25,849 nucleotides of DNA, from IMG/VR virus record IMGVR_UViG_2909246061_000004. One strand, written 5' to 3'. Below, piece by piece: positions 2,740 to 20,383 of the stretch. Under the pieces are notes generated by a model. That model did not search any database. It was not told where the DNA came from and saw nothing but the letters and a program-made list of their open reading frames with translations. The position numbers and the translations under genes were made by a program. Origin of the DNA: a virus (lineage: Duplodnaviria > Heunggongvirae > Uroviricota > Caudoviricetes). Each line of letters starts with the position of its first letter. The stretch's first letter is position 1.

Positions 2740-3161
2740 AAATCAAGCATGAACACATCCGCATGGCGATGAATGCCTGGGCGCATCCGGACGGCGAAAA
2801 AGTACCGGCTGCGAAAATTACCAAAGCGTATTTCGAGCTGGGAATGACGTTCCCGGAACTGTATGACGACAGCCATCCGGAAGCCCTGGCTCGCAATACT
2901 CAGAAAATTTTCCGCTGGGTGGAGAAAGACACCCCTGATGCGGTTAAAAAAATTCAGGCGTTGTTACCAGCTATCGAAAAAGCAATGCCACCTCTGCTGG
3001 TGGCCCGAATGCGCAGTCATAGCTCAGCCTATTTTCGGGAACTAGTGGAGACGCGGGAACGACTGGTGAGAGACGCTGATGATTTTGTCGCAGTGGCGAT
3101 CGCTGGTTTCAACCAGATGAATCGTGGTGGCCCTGCAGGAAATATTGTGGCTGTGCATTGA
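2736..3161 (+). CDS. YdaT-like protein (CII-position gene)
   Basis: ATG at 2736 with GGGAG RBS; begins MKIKHEHI and ends ...VAVH as remembered for Rac YdaT-family proteins (memory only). Confidence 0.4.
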   Translation: MKIKHEHIRMAMNAWAHPDGEKVPAAKITKAYFELGMTFPELYDDSHPEALARNTQKIFRWVEKDTPDAVKKIQALLPAIEKAMPPLLVARMRSHSSAYFRELVETRERLVRDADDFVAVAIAGFNQMNRGGPAGNIVAVH

Positions 3162-3232
3162 CTCGCAATATTCATACCGGATCACTTCCGGCAATTTGTG
3201 AGTAAAAAGATTCGGTATCAAAAGAGGTGAGT

Positions 3233-4303
3233 ATGGCTAACGCCTGGCTCAGATTATGGCATGACATGCCAAATGACCCTAAGTGGCGAACAATTGCCAG
3301 GGTGTCAGGGCAGCCAATTGCAACAGTGATGGCAGTGTATATCCACCTCTTGGTGAGCGCGTCACGAAATGTCACGCGAGGTCACATTGATGTCACGACA
3401 GAAGATTTGGCAAGTGCGCTCGACGTGACAGAAGAGGTAATTGATTCAATTTTGCAGACGATGCAGGGGCGGGTACTTGATAGTGATTTAATCACTGGAT
3501 GGGAAAAACGCCAGGTGCTTAAAGAGGACAACGGCAATATTTCGCAAACCGCAAAATCTCCTGCAGAGCGCAAGAGGGCGCAGCGAGAGAGGGAAAGAAA
3601 GCGGGAACAAAATGGCGATTGTCACGGCGCGTCACGAAATGTCACGCACATGTCACGACGAGTCACGACAGATAAAGATACAGATAAAGATACAGATCAA
3701 GAAGATCAAAACACTATGGTCCATGGCGTAAAAAACGCCACGAACCAGGCAGGGGATGTTCAGACCGTCAATCTTGGTCAGCCAGCAGGCACGACACCGG
3801 AAGCCGATTCAGCGTATGCGCTGAAAGCCGATTCGGGCGCTGTGCAGCAGGTGATGACCGCAAGGCCGGAGCAATCACACCAACTGCAGCAGCCCGAAGC
3901 CGATTCCGCCATTCAGCGGGAAGCCTATCCGGTAGTCCCGGAAAACACCGGGCAGTCTGTGGGACGAGTGGATTATCCGGATGTGTTCGAACAGGTCTGG
4001 CGGGAGTACCCGTTGCGTGCCGGAGCAAACCCGAAGAAATCCGCTTTCAGTGCCTGGAAGGCCAGATTACGCGAGGGGGTGCCACCAGAGGCCATGCTGG
4101 ATGGCGTGAGGCGTTACGCAAGATACTTGGCGGCTACCGGGAAAACGGGAACGGAATTTGTTCAGCGAGCGACGACGTTTTTTGGACCGGACCGGAATTT
4201 TGAGAACCCCTGGTTGCTCCCGGTAAGCGGCACGAACAACCAGCGTTGTGTGAATCATATTTCTGAACCGGATAACGAAATTCCGCCGGGCTTCAGGGGG
4301 TAA
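3233..4303 (+). CDS. Phage replication initiation protein (O-like) with iterons inside its coding sequence
   Basis: ATG at 3233 with AGAGGTG RBS; N-terminus MANAWLRLWHDMPNDPKWRTIARVSG typical of prophage replication proteins; phased GTCACG repeats inside the gene. Confidence 0.55.
   Translation: MANAWLRLWHDMPNDPKWRTIARVSGQPIATVMAVYIHLLVSASRNVTRGHIDVTTEDLASALDVTEEVIDSILQTMQGRVLDSDLITGWEKRQVLKEDNGNISQTAKSPAERKRAQRERERKREQNGDCHGASRNVTHMSRRVTTDKDTDKDTDQEDQNTMVHGVKNATNQAGDVQTVNLGQPAGTTPEADSAYALKADSGAVQQVMTARPEQSHQLQQPEADSAIQREAYPVVPENTGQSVGRVDYPDVFEQVWREYPLRAGANPKKSAFSAWKARLREGVPPEAMLDGVRRYARYLAATGKTGTEFVQRATTFFGPDRNFENPWLLPVSGTNNQRCVNHISEPDNEIPPGFRG
3361..3397 (+). repeat. Iteron cluster 1: four GTCAC(G/A) copies at ~10-bp spacing
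   Basis: GTCACGAAATGTCACGCGAGGTCACATTGATGTCACG read directly. Confidence 0.5.
3621..3666 (+). repeat. Iteron cluster 2: five GTCACG copies at exact 10-bp spacing, followed by a GATAAAGATACA tandem duplication
   Basis: GTCACGGCGCGTCACGAAATGTCACGCACATGTCACGACGAGTCACG read directly. Confidence 0.55.
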
Positions 4304-4343
4304 GTATTAATTTCTGGTCATGAGGTAATTTTCAGGAGGGCTT

Positions 4344-4766
4344 GTGGCAAAAGTTTTTACACAAGAAGAGCGGGAAAAAATTAAAGGGCAGGTTGTTGAA
4401 CTCGTACGCCAGAGTGGGCGCGAGACGTTACGACAACTGGAAACTAAAACTGGGGCAACAAGATATCTGATGAGCGTTCTGGCCAGAGAGCTGGTTGCCA
4501 GTGGCGATGTATACAACTCTGGTTACGGGTTATTCCCGTCTGAACAGGCGCGTAAGGACTGGCAAAATGCCCGTAAAAAGCTCTCAAGGGCAAAGCTGAA
4601 GAAACCATCTGCGGTTGATCCGGACCTTATCTGGTCATTACCTGATGGAGAAATACGTCGTTACGACAGGCGTCATAATATGATTTGTACTGAGTGTCGT
4701 AAAAGCGAAGTTATGCAGCGCATATTGTCGTTTTATCAGGGGGATGTTCGGTATTTATTGAAGTGA
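4344..4766 (+). CDS. Hypothetical protein (140 aa), GTG start
   Basis: GTG at 4344 with AGGAGG 5 nt upstream; no family recognised. Confidence 0.45.
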   Translation: MAKVFTQEEREKIKGQVVELVRQSGRETLRQLETKTGATRYLMSVLARELVASGDVYNSGYGLFPSEQARKDWQNARKKLSRAKLKKPSAVDPDLIWSLPDGEIRRYDRRHNMICTECRKSEVMQRILSFYQGDVRYLLK

Positions 4767-6050
4767 CGAGATTAAAGTGCATTAGTTCAGATGCAAATTG
4801 ACATTTTGTGGCACAGGGTAGAGCTAGCGTGGTTGTCCGCTTTGTGCCAACAGCGGACATTATGGAAGGTCAGAGTTAAAGATTAAAATGGGATGCTGTG
4901 TGTTTTCTCCAGGTTTTGCTCTATACCTTTCGGGATACTCCACCGACAGAATACGAAAATCAACATTATCAACGGCTCGAAGTGTCTAGATTATCCATGG
5001 CAATTCATGGGAAATCCCATCCAACGGCTTATGCTTCATGTTGCTTTTTGAGATCGCTTCTAGCATAGCTCCACTCAATAATGTTGTCGGGTCGTTGCTG
5101 ATCGAAAAGGATACGGGATTCAATACCATTACCTAAAAAGCTGGTATTCCCATCTACGTAAGAAGCTATCCCTTGTGAACCAACACGAAGAATATTTTCT
5201 AATGGCTGTTTTGTTCTTGCTGCATCGCTAAGGAGATATAAACCCGGGTACGTTTTGTTAGCACGGTGAAAAAAAAGTTCATTGTCAAAACACATGACGA
5301 TGATTATTTGTCCCGACATGAGATCGGAGAGCATTTCAGTTGGCAGATGCAAACTCATAAATGGTCGAGACAAAGGGTCAAAGAATGAATCATTTATATT
5401 CACAACAGGGCTTTTTATACCGAGACTATCCATCCATCCATTGAAGGCAACAAAGCCCATTTCAGAATCACGGTACATACCTAAGAACAAACATTCATCA
5501 ATAGTATCAATTGCCCAATTTTTTCCTCCGCGAATAATCTCCCACATTTTAACTAAGCGGTGGGTATAAAATTCAGACGGATGATCTATCTCATTGATTT
5601 TAACTTTAGACTGATGAAAGTTGTCAAAGCCCTCGCCAGTATTAATCGCCTCCAGAACATTCATGCCACGAATGATTTGCCTTTTTATGCGATTAAATTG
5701 CTTAACATCATTATCAGGCATATTGTTAATGAAGTTTTCTTCAAAGTGCGGACATTCTGAGATAACAGAAAATTCAGCAGCTTCATAAAGCTCATTATTC
5801 TTTTCACCTGTTTTAACTTCCACGAGCTGGAAGCCATCCAGTAGATTAAAGGTGACTAAATCTCCCACATGAACAAATGTGCTCATGTCAGAGACAATCG
5901 CTACGGAGTGTTTGTCCTGGTTGATAAGATCGGCTGCGACCATAGAATCAATTATGTTATCTTCTGATAGATTGTCATTGCTTGCATTAATAGGTAAACG
6001 CCGCAAACTAGAGTGTTCTTCATCAAGAATGCTCCAAATTATTGAGTCAA

Positions 6051-6059
6051 TACAACGGC
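6051..6059. repeat. IS1 target-site duplication, left copy (TACAACGGC)
   Basis: Identical 9-mer at 6828..6836 directly flanking the other IS1 end. Confidence 0.85.
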
Positions 6060-6074
6060 GGTAATGACTCCAAC

Positions 6075-6578
6075 TTATTGATAGTGTTTTATGTTCAGAT
6101 AATGCCCGATGACTTTGTCATGCAGCTCCACCGATTTTGAGAACGACAGCGACTTCCGTCCCAGCCGTGCCAGGTGCTGCCTCAGATTCAGGTTATGCCG
6201 CTCAATTCGCTGCGTATATCGCTTGCTGATTACGTGCAGCTTTCCCTTCAGGCGGGATTCATACAGCGGCCAGCCATCCGTCATCCATATCACCACGTCA
6301 AAGGGTGACAGCAGGCTCATAAGACGCCCCAGCGTCGCCATAGTGCGTTCACCGAATACGTGCGCAACAACCGTCTTCCGGAGCCTGTCATACGCGTAAA
6401 ACAGCCAGCGCTGGCGCGATTTAGCCCCGACATAGCCCCACTGTTCGTCCATTTCCGCGCAGACGATGACGTCACTGCCCGGCTGTATGCGCGAGGTTAC
6501 CGACTGCGGCCTGAGTTTTTTAAATGGCGGAAAATCGTGTTGAGGCCAACGCCCATAATGCGGGCGGTTGCCCGGCAT
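6075..6578 (-). CDS. insB: IS1 InsB (transposase C-terminal frame)
   Basis: 167-aa ORF matching remembered IS1 InsB. Confidence 0.9.
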
Positions 6579-6772
6579 CCAACGCCATTCATGGCCATAT
6601 CAATGATTTTCTGGTGCGTACCGGGTTGAGAAGCGGTGTAAGTGAACTGCAGTTGCCATGTTTTACGGCAGTGAGAGCAGAGATAGCGCTGATGTCCGGC
6701 AGTGCTTTTGCCGTTACGCACCACCCCGTCAGTAGCTGAACAGGAGGGACAGCTGATAGAAACAGAAGCCAC
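6497..6772 (-). CDS. insA: IS1 InsA
   Basis: 91-aa [43 protein letters not shown]... matching remembered IS1 InsA. Confidence 0.9.
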
Positions 6773-6827
6773 TGGAGCACCTCAAAAACACCATCATACA
6801 CTAAATCAGTAAGTTGGCAGCATCACC

Positions 6828-6836
6828 TACAACGGC
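6828..6836. repeat. IS1 target-site duplication, right copy (TACAACGGC)
   Basis: Identical to 6051..6059. Confidence 0.85.
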
Positions 6837-7286
6837 GAAGAATAAGAATTTCAAATTTTTTTAAACTTATTTCATCAATACACTTTTCTTTATTTTCTTT
6901 ATCCTTGTTTCGATGGTGCTCTTTTTTTTCAGTTTTCAATCTTTTTATATCTCTCAGCCGAATAATAATCTCAAAAGATATGATTTTTTGTGAGTCTTTC
7001 CAATTTTTGAGACAGGTTTCATACTCTGCAAGAAAATCCTCATCATTGGAAGGTAGTTCTTGAATTGGATTCCCTCCCCTTATCATTTTGGCAAGTGCAT
7101 GCATTAAAGATACATAATGAGGTGATAAAATTGTCCAAAACTTCCTAAACGGTTTGTACTTTTCAAGAAAAGTTGACTCATCAGTATAATTCATCATAAC
7201 CAAACCTCATTCCTCTTATCTATTTTCCTCAAGGTATAAAATACCAGCCTTTTTTACATAATTATAGTTATAATATGAAGTCTCAT

Positions 7287-8156
7287 TCAGATATCTTCAT
7301 ACTGTACGTAAGAAATATTTGAGCCTCTGATACCATAATCTTCTAAACTGCCTGATTTTTTCTCACCTCTATATAAAGCAACTATCCATCGAGCATTTTC
7401 TTGGATGCTTTTATTTATTTCAGTAAAGTATTCACCGTCAACTTCGGCGAGCGAGTGGCCTAAAACGATGACCTCGTCCACATTTTTAAGCGATGAGAAA
7501 AAAACGTTTTCTTCTTTAATTATGTCTTCGCTGGGCTTGAATGTATTACCGAAGTATTCGTTTATTCTGTCGTATGCCTCTGCTATTCTTGTATCTTGAT
7601 CCGGTCCTATATATGGATTTAGTGACTTTTCCACCCTAAAACTATGACCAAGTATGAGATCGTCATCGTAACTACAATTGCCGTGAATATGTATGATTTG
7701 CTCGTCTGGAACGGCATAGATCTGCTGCAAGGTATTTGTATAATTAAATGAAAAATAGATGCTTTCTCTTGGTATGGGCGGGATGTATTGCTTAGGATTG
7801 TAAGCATCGGCTATGTTAATCCCTTTAACCCAATCAGCGAATTGCTCCTTCAAACGAGCTGACAGCATTTGTGTGATTTTATTTACTTCATATTGGTAAT
7901 CGTGATGATAAGCATCGCTCCAATCATCGGTATTGTATGAAGCCAAAAATATCTCACTGTTTTGAAGGATAAGCTCATAATCAATTTCACCTAAAGCATT
8001 TTCTAACTCATTCCACTCGTCCCCAGCAGGAATGTATTCTTCTATCGCGTCATATAGATCTTGGTCATTTTTTTCTACATACGACTTAAAGTGCTTGTAT
8101 CCTGTTGGTAAGCCATGACGCATGTCAAATCCATTTCCTATTATGTAAAGCCTCAT
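7287..8156 (-). CDS. AbiH-like abortive-infection protein (290 aa)
   Basis: Start at the ATG at 8156 with AAGGGA RBS 8 nt upstream; N-terminus MRLYIIGNGFDMRHGLPTGY carries the IGNGFD-x-HGL motif remembered for the AbiH family; AT-rich gene inside a prophage. Confidence 0.5.
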   Translation of the reverse strand: MRLYIIGNGFDMRHGLPTGYKHFKSYVEKNDQDLYDAIEEYIPAGDEWNELENALGEIDYELILQNSEIFLASYNTDDWSDAYHHDYQYEVNKITQMLSARLKEQFADWVKGINIADAYNPKQYIPPIPRESIYFSFNYTNTLQQIYAVPDEQIIHIHGNCSYDDDLILGHSFRVEKSLNPYIGPDQDTRIAEAYDRINEYFGNTFKPSEDIIKEENVFFSSLKNVDEVIVLGHSLAEVDGEYFTEINKSIQENARWIVALYRGEKKSGSLEDYGIRGSNISYVQYEDI

Positions 8157-8470
8157 TGTTTTTCCCTTAGTCGAATTGTATAAAAATACTAACATGGCCT
8201 GCTCCACGTTGACTACTATCCCCTCCTTTGAGTAATGCCTTCATCAGATGTAACAACATTTGCGAGCTTCCACAGTTCGCTCAAAGCGGACTAGAAGGTT
8301 AGCTTGCGTCGGACTTGGCGTATTTAAAGAAGTGCTGGTGGAGACTGGTTGTTGTGTTCCATTTCTACAGAACAAAATCACAGAAACTATACCCAATAGT
8401 TATATTGAATCAATGATGAGACAGCCTCATATTTATCAGGACTGGTGTACGTCCAATACAGGAGGTTGTC

Positions 8471-10732: not shown

Positions 10733-11110
10733 ATGCGTGATATTCAGATGGTTCTTGAGCGTTGGGGGGCATGGGCGGCTAATAATCATGAAGATGTGAC
10801 CTGGTCGTCCATTGCCGCCGGTTTTAAGGGATTAATTCCTTCAAAAGTAAGATCTCGTCCGCAATGCTGTGACGATGACGCGATGATCATTTGTGAATGT
10901 ATGGCTCGCCTGAAAAAAAACAACAGCGATTTACATGATTTATTGGTGGACTATTATGTCGGCGGCATGACTTTTATGGCGCTTGCACATAAGCATGGGC
11001 GATCTGATTGTTGGGTTGGCAGGATGCTCCAGAAAGCTGAGGGCGTAGTGGAGGGCATGCTGATGGTGTTGGATCTCCGATTGGAGATGGATGCTGATTG
11101 TTCGAAATAA
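10733..11110 (+). CDS. Late-gene antiterminator Q (phage 82/21-type, QuuD-like)
   Basis: [31 protein letters not shown]... matches the remembered Q-family N-terminus; located immediately before a terminator and the lysis region. Confidence 0.7.
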
Positions 11111-11151: not shown

Positions 11152-11210
11152 TTTAAATGTTGGAATCGCAACGTAGTTATTATCATATAACAGCTTGTTT
11201 CCTGATTTAG

Positions 11211-11237
11211 CCAGCCTCCCCAAAGGCTGGTTTTTTT
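11211..11237 (+). terminator. Rho-independent terminator, likely tR' (target of Q antitermination)
   Basis: CCAGCCT-CCCCAA-AGGCTGG hairpin followed by TTTTTTT, about 100 bp after the Q stop. Confidence 0.5.
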
Positions 11238-11265
11238 CTAATAAGTATCATTTCGGGTGGGGATT

Positions 11266-11790
11266 TTATTGTTTAACCCATAATAGTTCATTGACATTGA
11301 ATCCCAACTTTTGAGCGGTACGCACATAGTCTGCTTTTACATTATCTGGAATAGTTTGGGTCCTTGCCAGAATCCATAGGTATTCTCTGTTCGGACCACT
11401 GACAAGAGCATACTTATACTCATCATCCAGTTTGATTACATTATAGCCACCATAGAAGGGGCCAAAAAACGAAACTTTCAACGCTGCAGTTTTAGTATCT
11501 CCAGTAAAGTATGCTTTACCTTCGCTCTCGCTCCATTTGTTTTTCGTTGGATCGTATCCACGGTTAAGTACGCGAATCCCTCCGTCGTTCCGTTTTTCAT
11601 AAGTAGCGCTGACCTGTTCCAGACCACGTTCGAACCAGTTCTCGAGGCGAGCTATTTCATACCATTTTCCGAGGTAGCGGTTGGCGTCAAAATTTGTAAT
11701 CGGCTGCACACCTTTAGGTGGTGTCGGGGCCTTACATGCTATAAGAGTGAAAGAGAGTGCAATGCCAGTCAACACAGGCCATAACTTCAT
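11266..11790 (-). CDS. blc: Outer-membrane lipocalin Blc-like lipoprotein (cargo gene)
   Basis: Signal peptide with lipobox LIAC, then NFDANRYLGKWYEIARLENWFERGLE and SFFGPFYGGYNVI motifs matching remembered E. coli Blc. Confidence 0.7.
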   Translation of the reverse strand: MKLWPVLTGIALSFTLIACKAPTPPKGVQPITNFDANRYLGKWYEIARLENWFERGLEQVSATYEKRNDGGIRVLNRGYDPTKNKWSESEGKAYFTGDTKTAALKVSFFGPFYGGYNVIKLDDEYKYALVSGPNREYLWILARTQTIPDNVKADYVRTAQKLGFNVNELLWVKQ

Positions 11791-11982: not shown

Positions 11983-12942
11983 ATGATAAAAAAACCTGTG
12001 ATTGGGATCAGCGGTTGTTTGGGCGGTTCTGCTGTTCGTTTTGATGGTGGTCACAAAAGAGATGACTTTTTAATGGACAAATTAGTGGAATGGGTAACAT
12101 TCAGACCAGTATGTCCGGAAATGGCTATAGGGCTGCCAGTTCCGCGTCCTGCTCTACGACTTGTGCGCTCGAAGCAAGGAAATATACGGATGTGTTTCAG
12201 CCACGACCAGAATGAGGATGTGACAGAGAGAATGACAGAGTTTAGTCGTTCTTATATGGACAAATTAAAGGATGTATCGGGGTTTGTGGTTTGTGCTAAA
12301 TCTCCCAGCTGTGGCATGGAGCGCGTGCGTGTCTATGATGAAAATGGTAATCGAGGTCGTAAAGATGGAGTGGGACTATTTACGAGCACTTTGATGGAAA
12401 AGTTTTCCTGGCTACCGGTTGAAGAGGATGGGCGATTACATGATCCAGTGCTTCGTGAGAATTTTATTGAAAGAGTTTTTGCTTTGCATGAGCTCAATCA
12501 CCTTTACAAGGAGAAATTATCAAGAAGAGAGTTATTAGCTTTTCATAGTCGTTATAAGCTTCAGTTGTTGGCGCATAGCCAGGCAGGCTATAAAGATATG
12601 GGACCATTTGTGGCTGCAATACACGAGTGGGCGGACCTTGAATCATACTTTGAGGTGTATCGTGATAATCTGATGGCGATTCTCAGAAAACCAGCATCAC
12701 GTAAAAATCACACGAATGTGCTGATGCATATACAGGGGTATTTTAGTAATTACTTAAGTACACGCCAGCGTAAAGAGTTGAGCGAGGTTATACTTAACTA
12801 TCGCTTTGGCACATTGCCTCTTCTTGCGCCGTTGACTCTGCTGAAGCATTATCTGGGTGAGTATCCTAATGATTACTTGCTTACACAGAATTACTTCGAT
12901 CCCTATCCGGAAGAACTGGCTCTAAGACTGATGGTGAATTAA
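11983..12942 (+). CDS. DUF523-DUF1722 two-domain protein (TudS/RudS-like putative thiouridine desulfidase)
   Basis: ATG with GGGGGAGG RBS; N-terminus IGISGCLGG..VRFDGGHK typical of DUF523, C-terminal half resembles YbgA-like DUF1722; domain call from memory. Confidence 0.5.
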   Translation: MIKKPVIGISGCLGGSAVRFDGGHKRDDFLMDKLVEWVTFRPVCPEMAIGLPVPRPALRLVRSKQGNIRMCFSHDQNEDVTERMTEFSRSYMDKLKDVSGFVVCAKSPSCGMERVRVYDENGNRGRKDGVGLFTSTLMEKFSWLPVEEDGRLHDPVLRENFIERVFALHELNHLYKEKLSRRELLAFHSRYKLQLLAHSQAGYKDMGPFVAAIHEWADLESYFEVYRDNLMAILRKPASRKNHTNVLMHIQGYFSNYLSTRQRKELSEVILNYRFGTLPLLAPLTLLKHYLGEYPNDYLLTQNYFDPYPEELALRLMVN

Positions 12943-13348
12943 CTGTATGCGATATCATCTGAAAGTGATGAGTTCCTGTATGCAGGATATTTACAATCGT
13001 AAAAACTACGCTATGATGCTCATAGTGTCAGTTTTTATAAAAATCCTGTTCACGCTAAAGAAAACATTGAGATGCAATTTAATGTTGGTAAACATACCAG
13101 CCCCAAAAGATTTTATTCAATCTGTTTTTATATGAAGATATTTCAAGTGAATATAAAGAGCATATAATATTATTATTGCACGCAGCTATTATAATATAAC
13201 AGATTAGTTTAATGATTTGTTTTTTGTGAGTTAAACACATGGTTTTATAGTTGTGATGCAATGAGATTTTCCTTATTGTTGAACTGGCGAATATTGATTT
13301 TCCACCTATACTTACCTGGTGTAACCCCAATGATATCAGGTGGATAAT

Positions 13349-14062
13349 ATGTCATACATATGTTCTATCATTTTGGTGTTGAACTCGTTTGGTGTCCGAA
13401 TTGGTAAAGAAGATATTTTGTTTAAAAAAGGAAATGCTGTCCTCATTGAATACAATTTAAAAGATCTTTTTTCGTCAAATACAGATCATCTAATGATCGT
13501 AGATGTTGAGGAGAAAACAGTTAATGATTTCTTTAAAAACTACACACTCTCACCTTTTTCTGTAAGAAGGTTTTATCCGTCATACTTGATAGTAGAATGT
13601 GAAGATTTTTCATTGTTAAAGAACTTGGTTGCATGCTTGAATTGTGATAGCAAAACCGTGGATGTAGTTAGAAATCAAATATCACTTGCATGTCTTGCTG
13701 TCTTATCTTCAGAGAAAATAGTGCAAAGTTTTTTGTTCGGAAGTCTTAATAGCTTAGGTTGTAAAGTTAAGGCTATTATTCACTCGGATATCTCAGCGTC
13801 ATGGAGACTTTGTGATATATCTTCAAGATTATATATGAGCGAGAGTTTGTTAAAAAGAAAATTAAAAGACGAAGGATTATCGTTTAGTAAATTAATTCTT
13901 GAAGAACGAATGATGATGGCGCAAAGATTATTGATCTACAGTAACCATACTGTCGGCAAGGTGGCGGGAATATGCGGGTATGACAATGCATCATATTTTG
14001 TAAGTGTTTTTAGAGGATATTTTGGTGTGCCTCCGCACCAATATTTATCAAGATTTTCTTAG
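13349..14062 (+). CDS. AraC/XylS-family transcriptional regulator, AppY/GadX/Rns-like
   Basis: ATG at 13349 with AGGTGG RBS; N-terminus MSYICSIILV resembles AppY; C-terminal double-HTH region (KVAGICGYDNASYFVSVFRGYFGVPPHQY); very AT-rich upstream region and AT-rich coding sequence. Confidence 0.7.
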   Translation: MSYICSIILVLNSFGVRIGKEDILFKKGNAVLIEYNLKDLFSSNTDHLMIVDVEEKTVNDFFKNYTLSPFSVRRFYPSYLIVECEDFSLLKNLVACLNCDSKTVDVVRNQISLACLAVLSSEKIVQSFLFGSLNSLGCKVKAIIHSDISASWRLCDISSRLYMSESLLKRKLKDEGLSFSKLILEERMMMAQRLLIYSNHTVGKVAGICGYDNASYFVSVFRGYFGVPPHQYLSRFS

Positions 14063-14131
14063 AAGATATGATGTGATGGCATTTTATAAAGTTATTTTTT
14101 GAAGTGTAAGATTATACGATATTTTTAGCTA

Positions 14132-14160
14132 CGCCAGAATAATTGCTGGCGTTTTTCTTT
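14132..14160 (+). terminator. Rho-independent terminator after the AraC-family gene
   Basis: CGCCAG-loop-CTGGCG hairpin followed by TTTTTCTTTTT. Confidence 0.45.
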
Positions 14161-14252
14161 TTGAATAGATGTTCGGGCCTTACGCTAATGTAACTTCTTT
14201 CCTTCTTCGAACCAAACCGTGTACACCATCCGTTATCTGCGGAGGTGAGGCT

Positions 14253-14468
14253 ATGAAATCCATGGATAAGTTAACAACGGGCATCGCCTACAGCACCTCT
14301 GCAGGCAGTGCTGGCTACTGGTTTTTACAGTTGCTCGATAAAGTCACGCCCTCACAGTGGGCGGCAATAGGTGTATTGGGTAGTCTGGTATTTGGCATGC
14401 TGACGTATCTGACAAATCTTTATTTCAAGATTAAAGAAGACAGGCGTAAGACTGCGAGAGGAGAGTAA
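14253..14468 (+). CDS. Pinholin (phage 21 S21-like), dual-start MKSM motif
   Basis: [66 protein letters not shown] closely matches remembered S21; GGAGGTGAGG RBS. Confidence 0.8.
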
Positions 14469-18296: not shown

Positions 18297-18824
18297 ATGT
18301 CAAATGTGAGCGGGATCGGTGATGCTTATTACTGGAGTGTTTTTAAAATCGCTGAGGCCTTTGGGCTTCACCGGGACACAGTAAAAAAACGGCTCCTCGC
18401 GGCCAACACTCCTGTGGCTGCGACTATCAGGGGGAACCCCGTTTACGCCCTGCAGCATGTCGGGCCAGCCCTGTTTAGTGTGAAGCATGAGGCAGCAGAC
18501 TCTGTTCATGATCCATCCCGTATGGAGCCGAAAGAGAGAAAGGACTGGTACCAATCTGAAAATGAAAGGATCAAGCTGGAAAAGGAGCAGCGAAAACTCA
18601 TCCCCGTTGATGAAGTAGTCATCGTCTATTCGTCCATGAGAAAGGCTGTCGTCCAGGTTCTGGAGACAATTCCGGATGTTCTTGAACGCGATTGCGCCCT
18701 GACTCCTCAGGCCGTCGGCGTTGTACAGCAGGCCATTGATGACCTGCGATACACTCTTCAGGAAAAATCCTACGAGGCTTGTGCTGCTGAATTAATTCCT
18801 GATGAGGAAGGAGAGAGTCTCTAG
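18297..18824 (+). CDS. Terminase small subunit (Nu1-like)
   Basis: Start at the ATG at 18297 with GGAG RBS; N-terminal HTH-like segment (AEAFGLHRDTVKKRLL); immediately upstream of the large terminase gene. Confidence 0.6.
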   Translation: MSNVSGIGDAYYWSVFKIAEAFGLHRDTVKKRLLAANTPVAATIRGNPVYALQHVGPALFSVKHEAADSVHDPSRMEPKERKDWYQSENERIKLEKEQRKLIPVDEVVIVYSSMRKAVVQVLETIPDVLERDCALTPQAVGVVQQAIDDLRYTLQEKSYEACAAELIPDEEGESL

Positions 18825-18832
18825 GAGGAATA

Positions 18833-20383
18833 ATGGGTTTTTCATCAGCCCGAAATTTGGGAAGGGACATATCGGCAGGATTTTCCCCACCACGTCGCAT
18901 GCCGATTTCGGAGGCTGTTAAAAAATTCATGCGTGTTCCCAAGGGGGCTGGTAACTCGGTGCCATGGGATCCTGAACTGACACCCTACATCATTGAGCCC
19001 ATGAACTGCCTGGCATCGCGTGAATACGATGCGGTGATTTTTGTTGGTCCTGCGCGAACAGGGAAGACCATTGGTCTGATCGATGGATGGATTGTCTATA
19101 CCATCGTTTGCGATCCTTCGGACATGCTCGTTGTGCAGATGACCGAAGATAAGGCCCGCGAGCATTCTAAAAAGCGCCTCGACAGAACGTTCAGAAGCAG
19201 TGCGGCGGTAAAGAAAAGAATGAGTCCACGTCGTAACGACAATAATGTCCATGATAAGACGTTCAGGGATGGCTCGTTCCTTAAAATTGGTTGGCCCTCG
19301 GTAAACATTATGTCGTCGTCGGATTACCGGTTTGTCGCCTTAACCGATTACGACCGTTTTCCGGAGAATATCGACAGCGAGGGTGATGGTTTCTCCCTGG
19401 CCTCAAAACGTACCACCACATTTATGTCCGCCGGGATGACTCTGGTGGAGAGCTCGCCGGGACGTGACATCTGCGACAGCAAATGGCGACGTAAGTCGCC
19501 TCATGAAGCGCCACCGACGACTGGTATTCTTTCCCTTTACAATCGTGGTGACCGCCGCCGCTGGTACTGGTCATGTCCGCACTGCGGTGAATATTTTCAG
19601 CCAGCCATGGATGCCATGACCGGCTACCGTAATGAACCGGATCCCTTTAAAGCCAGTGAGGCGGCGCATCTACTTTGCCCGCACTGCAGCGGCATTATCA
19701 CTGCGGAGAAAAAGCGTGAGCTCAATAGTGCAGGAGTCTGGTTGCGTGAAGGTCAGGTCATTGATCGTAACGGCAACGTTTCCGGTGAACCGCGCCGCTC
19801 CCGTATCGCCAGTTTCTGGATGGAAGGGCCAGCTGCTGCGTATCAGACCTGGGCGCAACTGGTTTACAAATTACTGACTGCAGAACAGGAGTATGAAGCG
19901 ACAGGAAGCGAAGAAACACTCAGGGCGGTTATCAACACCGACTGGGGATTGCCTTATCTTCCTCGTGCCAGCATGGAGCAACGAAAAAGTGAACTGCTTG
20001 AGCAGCGGGCAGAGCTAGTTCCTTCCCGCAGTGTGCCGGATGGCGTTAATTTCCTTGTGGCGACAGTGGATGTGCAGGCGGGACGTCATCGCCGTTTTGT
20101 GGTTCAGGTAACGGGCTATGGCAGTCGTGGCGAACGCTGGATTATTGATCGTTACAACATCACGCAGTCATTGCGCAGTGACTGCGACGGGGAGAGCCAG
20201 CGAATTGATCCGGCCAGCTATCCGGAAGACTGGGATGTCCTGCTGACGGATGTTTTTCATAAAAGCTGGCCGCTGGCCTCCGATCCTTCTCAACAAATGC
20301 GACTGATGGCAATGGCGGTGGACTCCGGCGGTGAAGACGGGGTCACTGATACCGGCTGGCGAGGTTCTGATGGCAATTCTTGA
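18833..20383 (+). pseudogene. Terminase large subunit (lambda gpA-like), C-terminally truncated at ~516 codons
   Basis: AGGAGG RBS; CPHCG zinc-ribbon and gpA-like motifs; ends ...DSGGEDG where remembered lambda gpA (641 aa) continues; portal-like coding sequence follows in another frame. Confidence 0.65.

Follow-up and report, generated by a model that had tools for sequence, protein, structure and literature searches.

A PatE-like AraC/XylS regulator gene in the Q-to-holin cargo slot of a Qin-like Escherichia coli prophage

AraC/XylS regulators carried by prophages (AppY, PatE, PsrA and PsrB) are established examples of cargo with which phages rewire core circuits of stress and virulence, and have been studied so far only in Escherichia coli K-12 and in enterohaemorrhagic E. 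coli. PatE activates gadE, gadBC and hdeAB, PsrB activates gadE and hdeAB, and PsrA and PsrB act through GadE and YhiF and repress type III secretion via GadE (PMC10877973). AppY affects acid resistance, and H-NS is among the regulators of appY (PMC10057817). Activation of promoters of the GAD acid-fitness island (gadE, hdeAB) is known for PatE, PsrB and AppY (PMC10877973, PMC10057817). Pulse expression of the small RNA HnrS, a repressor of hha translation, makes psrA and gadE rise (PMC13502914). Another gene of this kind was analysed in a stretch of 25,849 nucleotides of viral DNA (IMG/VR record IMGVR_UViG_2909246061_000004; this whole stretch is called the window), where it occupies positions 13349–14062 of the forward strand. 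It encodes an intact two-domain AraC/XylS regulator under purifying selection. The branch to which it belongs is unnamed, no study of it was found, and it is an ordinary member of the prophage PatE/Psr/AppY group. A preliminary description of the locus had presented an AppY-like AraC regulator behind a leader of about 400 bp that looked silenced by H-NS, in a group that rewires host acid-resistance and virulence regulons; this interpretation was partly supported. With moderate confidence, the gene is read here as a moron, that is, self-contained lambdoid-prophage cargo, which would be restrained by H-NS, would have its own promoter and would raise host acid resistance via GAD.

The regulator and its closest relatives

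The open reading frame at this position, taken from a GTG, covers 13340–14062 (240 amino acids). The ATG at 13349 is the start in RefSeq and in every homologue; the family-typical N-terminus MSYICSIILV begins there, and the resulting protein has 237 amino acids (WP_000120340.1). Residues 161–237 matched Pfam HTH_18 with 59.9 bits (cut-off 33.6), and HTH_AraC scored 42.6 bits (cut-off 26.6). The C-terminal DNA-binding domain of the AraC/XylS family, about 100 amino acids with two helix-turn-helix (HTH) motifs, was found complete. With a full-length frame and both domain scores above cut-off, the gene neither lacks the HTH domain nor is disrupted, and the AraC-family regulator of the preliminary description was confirmed.

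The AF2 model (predicted local distance difference test 87.5, predicted template-modelling score 0.81) showed two domains: the N-terminal one is rich in strands, with helices after it, and the C-terminal one has seven helices. The latter was superposed on the DNA-binding domain of GadX (3mkl) with a template-modelling (TM) score of 0.87–0.90, a root-mean-square deviation of 1.2–1.5 Å and 40% identity, and it also fitted the DNA-binding domains of MarA, SoxS and AraC. The N-terminal companion domain of the family (dimerisation or ligand) was recognised in the AF2 model, by Foldseek and by phmmer. The best full-length structural matches were CsvR and Rns of enterotoxigenic E. coli and ToxT of Vibrio cholerae, which have the same two-domain architecture (Foldseek E values 1e-10 to 1e-7; phmmer against the PDB agreed). 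Owing to a different orientation of the domains, the TM score to these three reached only about 0.44. They differ from the window protein in sequence (17–21% identity), and no evidence of a fatty-acid pocket was seen in it.

Ratios of nonsynonymous to synonymous substitution (dN/dS) against three paralogues were 0.22, 0.22 and 0.16, so the protein is maintained by purifying selection. These values bear on the suggestion that the gene is a decayed, non-functional remnant in a defective prophage, which is highly improbable. The prophage is indeed defective in many carriers (insertion sequence (IS) insertions, truncated structural genes), and the C-terminal tail is 6 amino acids shorter than in the 243-amino-acid paralogues. 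However, the reading frame is full length, the HTH domain is complete, dN/dS is about 0.2, the gene is carried at ≥99% identity by 316 genomes, viable phages have the same class of allele, and frequent frameshifts across carriers were not seen. The difference in length arises at the extreme 3′ end of the DNA (14040–14070), past the HTH domain: the window allele ends ...SRFS at 237 amino acids and the paralogues run on as ...SR(F/L)FLEK... to 243.

Reference proteins for the comparison panel were taken from K-12 and O157 Sakai, with the PsrB sequence outside the panel. BLASTP alignments spanning residues 1–235 gave identities to the window protein of 47.7% (ECs_0287, Sakai), 38.4% (ECs_1087, Sakai), 33.5% (GadW), 29.8% (AppY) and 29.6% (YdeO). 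Similarity of AdiY, EnvY and GadX was chiefly in the C-terminal domain, and YbcM was barely related. For ECs_0287, identity was lower in the N-terminal domain (34%) than in the C-terminal domain (65%), and its first recognition helix was near-identical to that of the window protein (SESLLKRKLK-EG-SFS). The marks of the subfamily, an N-terminal M..CS(V/I)I(L/M) strand and a SESLLK(R/K)KL recognition helix with full-length homology, were all present. In a neighbour-joining tree the window protein was sister to the PatE group, followed by PsrA and then by YdeO and GadW/AppY. Only 10 clusters among 1.84 billion representatives were found at E ≤ 1e-30, so the subfamily is narrow. The NCBIfam HilD score was far under the equivalog cut-off.

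ECs_0287 is the sole AraC-type gene of prophage Sp1 at thrW and is presumed, from synteny, to be PatE (Z0321, OI-8; PMC10877973). By sequence comparison this presumed PatE is the closest characterised relative, and "PatE-like paralogue" is a better label than "AppY-like". The latter is right at subfamily level only: both proteins belong to the same prophage AraC/XylS subfamily, but identity to AppY is 30% and in the tree the PatE group is the sister of the window protein. The low identity and a different locus also argue against orthology with AppY; orthology with PatE is disfavoured by the 47.7% identity, the sister-clade position and the different place in the phage.

PatE (presumed ECs_0287) and the window protein are both prophage-borne AraC/XylS regulators (247 and 237 amino acids) with an N-terminal M..CS(V/I)I motif and a TATACT at the same distance upstream of the ATG. 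PatE-type genes were found at the tail-fibre end of phages, without linkage to lipocalin or ybgA genes, whereas the window gene lies between the antiterminator gene Q and the holin gene. PsrA and PsrB (Z1789, Z2104) share with it the subfamily, AT-rich DNA and a position downstream of Q and upstream of lysis or Shiga toxin (stx) genes. PsrA is only 38% identical to the window protein, and the two Psr genes are tied to tRNA genes, Pch regulators and effector loci in strains positive for the locus of enterocyte effacement; the window gene, unlike them, is widespread in commensal and extra-intestinal strains. AppY, encoded by prophage DLP12 of K-12, is likewise a prophage AraC/XylS regulator with near-identical base composition, but its gene lies at the distal end of DLP12 beside ompT and it groups with GadW in the tree. 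The C-terminal domains of GadW, GadX and YdeO are 40–45% identical to that of the window protein, whereas full-length identity of GadW and YdeO is 30–33% and the window gene is not in the GAD island.

ECs_1087 has been named psrA (PMC13502914), and reviews assign Z1789 to PsrA (PMC10877973, PMC8565820). The Sakai Sp9 region was examined and contained no AraC gene. RefSeq gives ECs_1087 195 amino acids (18804–19391 of the extracted Sakai locus). Its open reading frame extends to 237 amino acids (18678–19391) and then begins with MVVVCSVIMV, an N-terminus typical of the family, so the start has probably been annotated too far downstream.

Genome context and exchange of the cargo

The window represents an E. 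coli prophage of the lambdoid group that resembles Qin. A module of 1220 bp containing the regulator (12943–14162) was 100% identical to many E. coli chromosomes. In strain ECCWS199 the copy sits in a Qin-like lambdoid prophage by RefSeq annotation, surrounded by dicB, ydfD, hokD, ydfU, essQ, ydfR, rzpQ, cspI, pinQ, ydfK and ydfJ, and Rfam matches in the window (DicF, sok, cspA thermoregulator, IS009) fit such a prophage. The AraC gene occupies the variable cargo slot from antiterminator Q to the lysis genes, in the following order:

10733–11110, forward: late antiterminator Q (Pfam Phage_antitermQ, 170 bits; RefSeq annotation)
11209–11241, forward: tR′-like intrinsic terminator directly 3′ of Q (terminator scan, sequence)
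11266–11790, reverse: Blc-like outer-membrane lipocalin lipoprotein, 174 amino acids (Pfam Lipocalin_2; NCBIfam Blc subfamily, 312.6 bits, cut-off 267)
11983–12942, forward: YbgA-family protein, 319 amino acids, a fusion of TudS/DUF523 (2-thiouracil desulfurase) and DUF1722 (Pfam, RefSeq)
12943–13348, forward: AT-rich intergenic and upstream region, 406 bp (composition; alignment to the paralogue loci at 85% and 76%)
13349–14062, forward: coding sequence of the AraC/XylS regulator of the PatE/Psr clade, 237 amino acids, TAG stop included (open reading frame, RefSeq WP_000120340.1, Pfam)
14131–14162, forward: intrinsic terminator ending the module, with a 7-bp GC-rich stem, an 8-nt loop and a T-run (terminator scan)
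14253–14468, forward: class II holin, first lysis gene (Pfam Phage_holin_2_1; RefSeq essQ)

Late transcription must pass the tR′-like terminator before the cassette and the lysis genes are reached. The content of the slot varies: it holds nmpC in DLP12 of K-12, has been replaced by IS1 in another strain and holds cspB and cspF in Qin of K-12. The regulator gene has the features of a moron, namely atypical composition (32% GC against 43–47% in the flanks), a place between phage modules and variable presence. It also has a clear terminator of its own (14131–14162) and, upstream, conserved promoter-like blocks that are predicted from sequence.

The module was carried by 973 of 5426 complete E. 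coli genomes (about 18%), including commensal strain HS, which has the cassette and whose regulator gene occupies 1670401–1671114 of NC_009800.1. Among carriers, 316 had the gene at ≥99% identity and 578 at 80–90%. The 80–90% class is a paralogue of 243 amino acids (WP_001146309.1, 85% amino-acid identity) found in DLP12-like prophages, which keep the order Q, lipocalin, ybgA, AraC gene, holin. An 86% allele was found in the isolated phage IdasGreatGrand, and a third allele (76% identity) in Lambda_ev phages with the same neighbours. Relatives at 59% and 50% identity sit directly between Q and holin beside other Q families; when the 38% relative is included, the position is between Q and either holin or stx, and three different Q families are found beside it. 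A contig scan with two peptide patterns confirmed three loci (one mis-binned E. coli contig, two matches to the DNA-binding domain only). The first, JARKOR010000151.1, is a 3.2-kb contig binned as "Candidatus Nanosynbacter" that encodes an 85%-identical copy of the regulator, and is almost certainly a piece of E. coli prophage that was binned wrongly.

The lipocalin gene, divergently oriented, the YbgA-family gene and the regulator gene form a conserved three-gene cassette, and the regulator might therefore be local: it would control its own cassette (the divergent lipocalin gene, the YbgA/TudS-family gene or both), possibly by sensing a small molecule, and not the host acid-resistance regulon. 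This is the main rival to the moron reading and is considered unlikely. Control of adjacent genes is common among AraC regulators. The N-terminal domain is similar to the domains with which Rns and ToxT bind ligands, and the lipocalin-ybgA pair is present in 1150 of the 5426 genomes, and also in viable lambdoid phages, against 973 genomes for the regulator. However, neither a lipocalin nor a ybgA gene adjoins the relatives at 59%, 50%, 48% and 38% identity, the same lipocalin-ybgA pair (91–99% identical) is joined to 85% or 76% alleles with a junction at about 13060, and an inverted repeat upstream of the regulator (13260–13277) does not recur in the lipocalin-ybgA intergenic region.

The junction was located by alignment. 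Compared with the DLP12-type locus, Q, lipocalin and ybgA of the window differed at 0–7 positions per 100 nt, and the regulator module at 6–31 per 100 nt. High similarity to Lambda_ev phages ended near 13060, and the left-hand 80–120 bp of the gap (12943 to about 13060) move with ybgA in other phages. The contrast in divergence and the junction indicate that the regulator has been exchanged independently, with its left edge inside the upstream region.

In phage phiSTEC1575-Stx2k a PsrA-like AraC gene lies between Q and tRNA genes plus stx2AB (3001–5324 of the extracted locus). An iraM-like anti-adaptor gene was seen just 3′ in this phage.

Base composition and the upstream region

The region 12943–13348 is the whole gap from the stop codon of the ybgA-family gene (12942) to the start codon of the regulator. 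Its GC content is 31.0%, and 27.9% over 13000–13300. Just 1.6% of 406-bp segments in the 25.8-kb window were equally AT-rich, and the lowest value for segments of this size (29.1%) fell at 13076, inside the gap. The regulator coding sequence has 33.3% GC against 43–47% in the flanking Q, lipocalin, ybgA and holin genes, so the AT-rich island is the entire 1.2-kb module and not its upstream part alone. The extremely AT-rich upstream stretch of the preliminary description was thus borne out in length and composition, with two corrections: "upstream region" is a safer term than "leader", which implies a transcribed 5′ untranslated region, and the left 80–120 bp belong with ybgA and hold a terminator-like hairpin (13008–13028).

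Over 1.2 kb the module has 31–33% GC, against 44.5% for the window, an AT-rich composition as would be expected of an H-NS-silenced locus. The E. coli genome has about 51% GC. The values for appY are nearly the same as for the module (coding sequence 31.7%, upstream region 27.6%). The high-affinity H-NS motif TCGATAAATT had one weak match in the module (two mismatches, at 14042), which was uninformative. By analogy with the relatives and from composition, silencing of the module by H-NS is plausible.

When the window allele was aligned jointly with the 85% and 76% alleles, conserved blocks stood out amid divergent or deleted sequence. The following elements were marked in the gap:

12990–13017, forward: sigma-70-like TTTACA-16-TATGAT (best match of the promoter scan)
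13008–13028, forward: hairpin with T-run, overlapping 12990–13017 (terminator scan)
13103–13156, forward: 54-bp segment (indel) in the window allele, absent from DLP12-type and phage alleles (alignments)
13179–13217, forward: 38-nt copy of the post-Q sequence 11170–11208, containing a consensus TATAAT at 13190–13195 (repeat search)
13260–13277, forward: imperfect inverted repeat AATGAGA-TTTT-CCTTATT, candidate operator or small hairpin, conserved in three allele classes
13284–13312, forward: candidate proximal core promoter, with −35 CTGGCG (13284–13289), a 17-bp spacer and −10 TATACT (13307–13312)
13338–13343, forward: Shine-Dalgarno sequence AGGTGG, 5 nt before the ATG, kept in relatives

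Block 13284–13312 is likely the core promoter, which would give an untranslated region of about 30 nt. Promoter elements were compared across relatives by our own reading of the sequences. The spacing of TATACT to the ATG was roughly equal in the window, the 85%, 76%, 59% and 50% relatives and ECs_0287, and ECs_1087 has TATAAT there; in the more distant relatives a good −35 (TTGGCA or TTGGTA) lies 17–18 bp upstream of the −10. Positions 13251–13351 had zero differences from the 85% allele, and the flanks differed by 6–15%. The inverted repeat at 13260–13277 is unique in the window and is a perfect palindrome in phage Lambda_ev203. Block 12990–13028 was nearly invariant in all three allele classes, with diverging flanks. 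Its TTTACA-16-TATGAT is a predicted alternative distal promoter, and the hairpin may be the ybgA terminator.

The distal block also enters the possibility that the 406 bp act as a long 5′ untranslated region, a cis-regulatory RNA such as an anti-Shine-Dalgarno hairpin or a thermometer. The virulence regulator LcrF has such an RNA thermometer. A start at the invariant block 12990–13017 would give a leader of about 325 nt, and the complementarity of CCACCT (13302–13307) to AGGTGG (13338–13343) is kept in the 85% and 76% alleles. However, predicted folds were no better than those of shuffled sequences (z = −1.6, −0.6 and −0.3), and no Rfam family was found at threshold. The 59% and 50% relatives and ECs_0287 lack CCACCT and have the spacer of a good promoter in its place. 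As the principal explanation, an anti-Shine-Dalgarno hairpin or thermometer was rejected, since folds resembled shuffles and CCACCT was not conserved beyond close alleles, and a regulatory leader of this kind is improbable.

The 38-nt repeat had a local alignment score of 41; shuffled sequences had a mean of 19.3 and a maximum of 30, and 0 of 500 reached the score. Its source (11170–11208) lies just before the tR′-like terminator after Q, and a related TA(A/T)ATATAACAG motif follows quuD in DLP12 of K-12. The copy, which the 76% allele lacks, could be left over from an ancestral order of Q, promoter and regulator like that of distant relatives, or be a remnant or duplicate of the late-promoter pause region. 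That it still works as a post-Q late-promoter/pause copy, giving a Q-dependent burst of regulator on induction in addition to a low level in the lysogen, is a slim prospect; if true, AraC regulators in the Shiga-toxin slot would couple prophage induction to acid-resistance and virulence regulons, and this coupling would reach about a fifth of E. coli strains, commensals included.

The copy would also be a second Q-responsive element if the gene served the phage, being made mainly from the Q-dependent late transcript and tuning lysis, late genes or host physiology in lytic growth. The 38-nt copy has a −10-like element in the upstream region, family members occupy the Q-to-holin position beside three unrelated Q families, and in two relatives the gene is the first open reading frame after Q, 200–240 bp downstream. 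On the other side, the Q-to-S interval takes cargo in general (stx in phiSTEC1575-Stx2k, nmpC in DLP12 of K-12), PatE-type copies lie far off at the tail-fibre end of the phage genome, the 76% allele has no 38-nt copy, and the gene is kept in defective prophages that are incapable of lytic growth. Such a phage-serving role is given little weight.

Two further candidates in the gap were weighed. A small open reading frame (start at 12947 or 12968, to 13135) is probably no gene, as a 1-nt indel puts the upstream ATG out of frame in the paralogues. The 55-amino-acid frame 12968–13135 (forward; MSSCMQDIYNRKNY...) is open in the paralogous loci and annotated in phage IdasGreatGrand; its C-termini differ among paralogues, and dN/dS was 0.46 on only 15 substitutions. 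A match to the small RNA IS128 at 12993–13148 (forward) scored 23 bits against a gathering score of 80 (E 0.016–0.044) and was treated as chance; no Rfam family reached the gathering score in the module, and IS128 was not found near the K-12 relatives. The first hairpin of this sub-threshold match coincides with the conserved hairpin 13008–13028.

Proposed action of the module

For the moron reading, the following sequence of events is proposed. In the lysogen, the module would be transcribed from its own promoter or promoters (candidates TATACT at 13307–13312 and TTTACA-16-TATGAT at 12990–13017). H-NS, with Hha, would bind this AT-rich DNA and keep expression low, as happens at psrA, appY and the genes of the gad regulators; release would occur under particular conditions, for example stationary phase. 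Like PatE and PsrB, the regulator would then bind AT-rich promoters in the GAD acid-fitness island (gadE, hdeAB) and so increase acid resistance. Upon prophage induction, Q-modified RNA polymerase would start 3′ of Q and pass the terminators at 11209–11241 and 14131–14162, and this read-through would co-transcribe the regulator with the late operon. Activation of gadE/hdeAB-type promoters is suggested by the relatives, as the DNA-binding domain closely matches those of PatE and PsrB, and by this analogy control of the GAD acid-resistance regulon is plausible.

Several observations weigh against this account. The proximal −35 is weak here (CTGGCG), the promoter scan found 13 promoter-like sites where 12.6 were expected by chance, and only 2 of 12 promoter-like hexamer matches stood out. 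H-NS binding is suggested by base composition alone. The NCBIfam equivalogs YdeO (114 bits, cut-off 348) and GadX (89.9 bits, cut-off 500) were not reached. Since the N-terminal domain is only 34% identical to PatE (ECs_0287), signal input may differ. The three cassette genes are co-inherited in Qin-like and DLP12-like prophages and in free phages, as local control would have it. A literature search found no paper citing the accession of the regulator or of its neighbours.

The branch is present in about 18% of complete E. coli genomes, among them commensal HS and human-blood strains, and also in viable phages. If it acts on GAD as its relatives do, acid resistance would have in it a widespread modifier that varies from strain to strain, with a bearing on gut passage and on differences in stress phenotypes between strains. 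Such a finding would extend a known theme and not open a new one.

The PHROGs assignment of the regulator was phrog_1450, of unknown function, and both proteins of the lipocalin-ybgA pair likewise fell in PHROG families with function unknown. In PADLOC, the regulator and the YbgA-family protein matched no defence model. Elsewhere in the window, an IS1 transposase frame (6075–6578) lies between open reading frame fragments at 5029–7203 (reverse), and these IS1-interrupted frames adjoin an AbiH abortive-infection gene at 7287–8207 (reverse). ECCWS199 has a single intact hypothetical gene of 463 amino acids where the window is interrupted. The intact gene there and the separated fragments here suggest a possible two-gene defence locus (the 463-amino-acid gene and AbiH) that has been broken by IS1 in the window.

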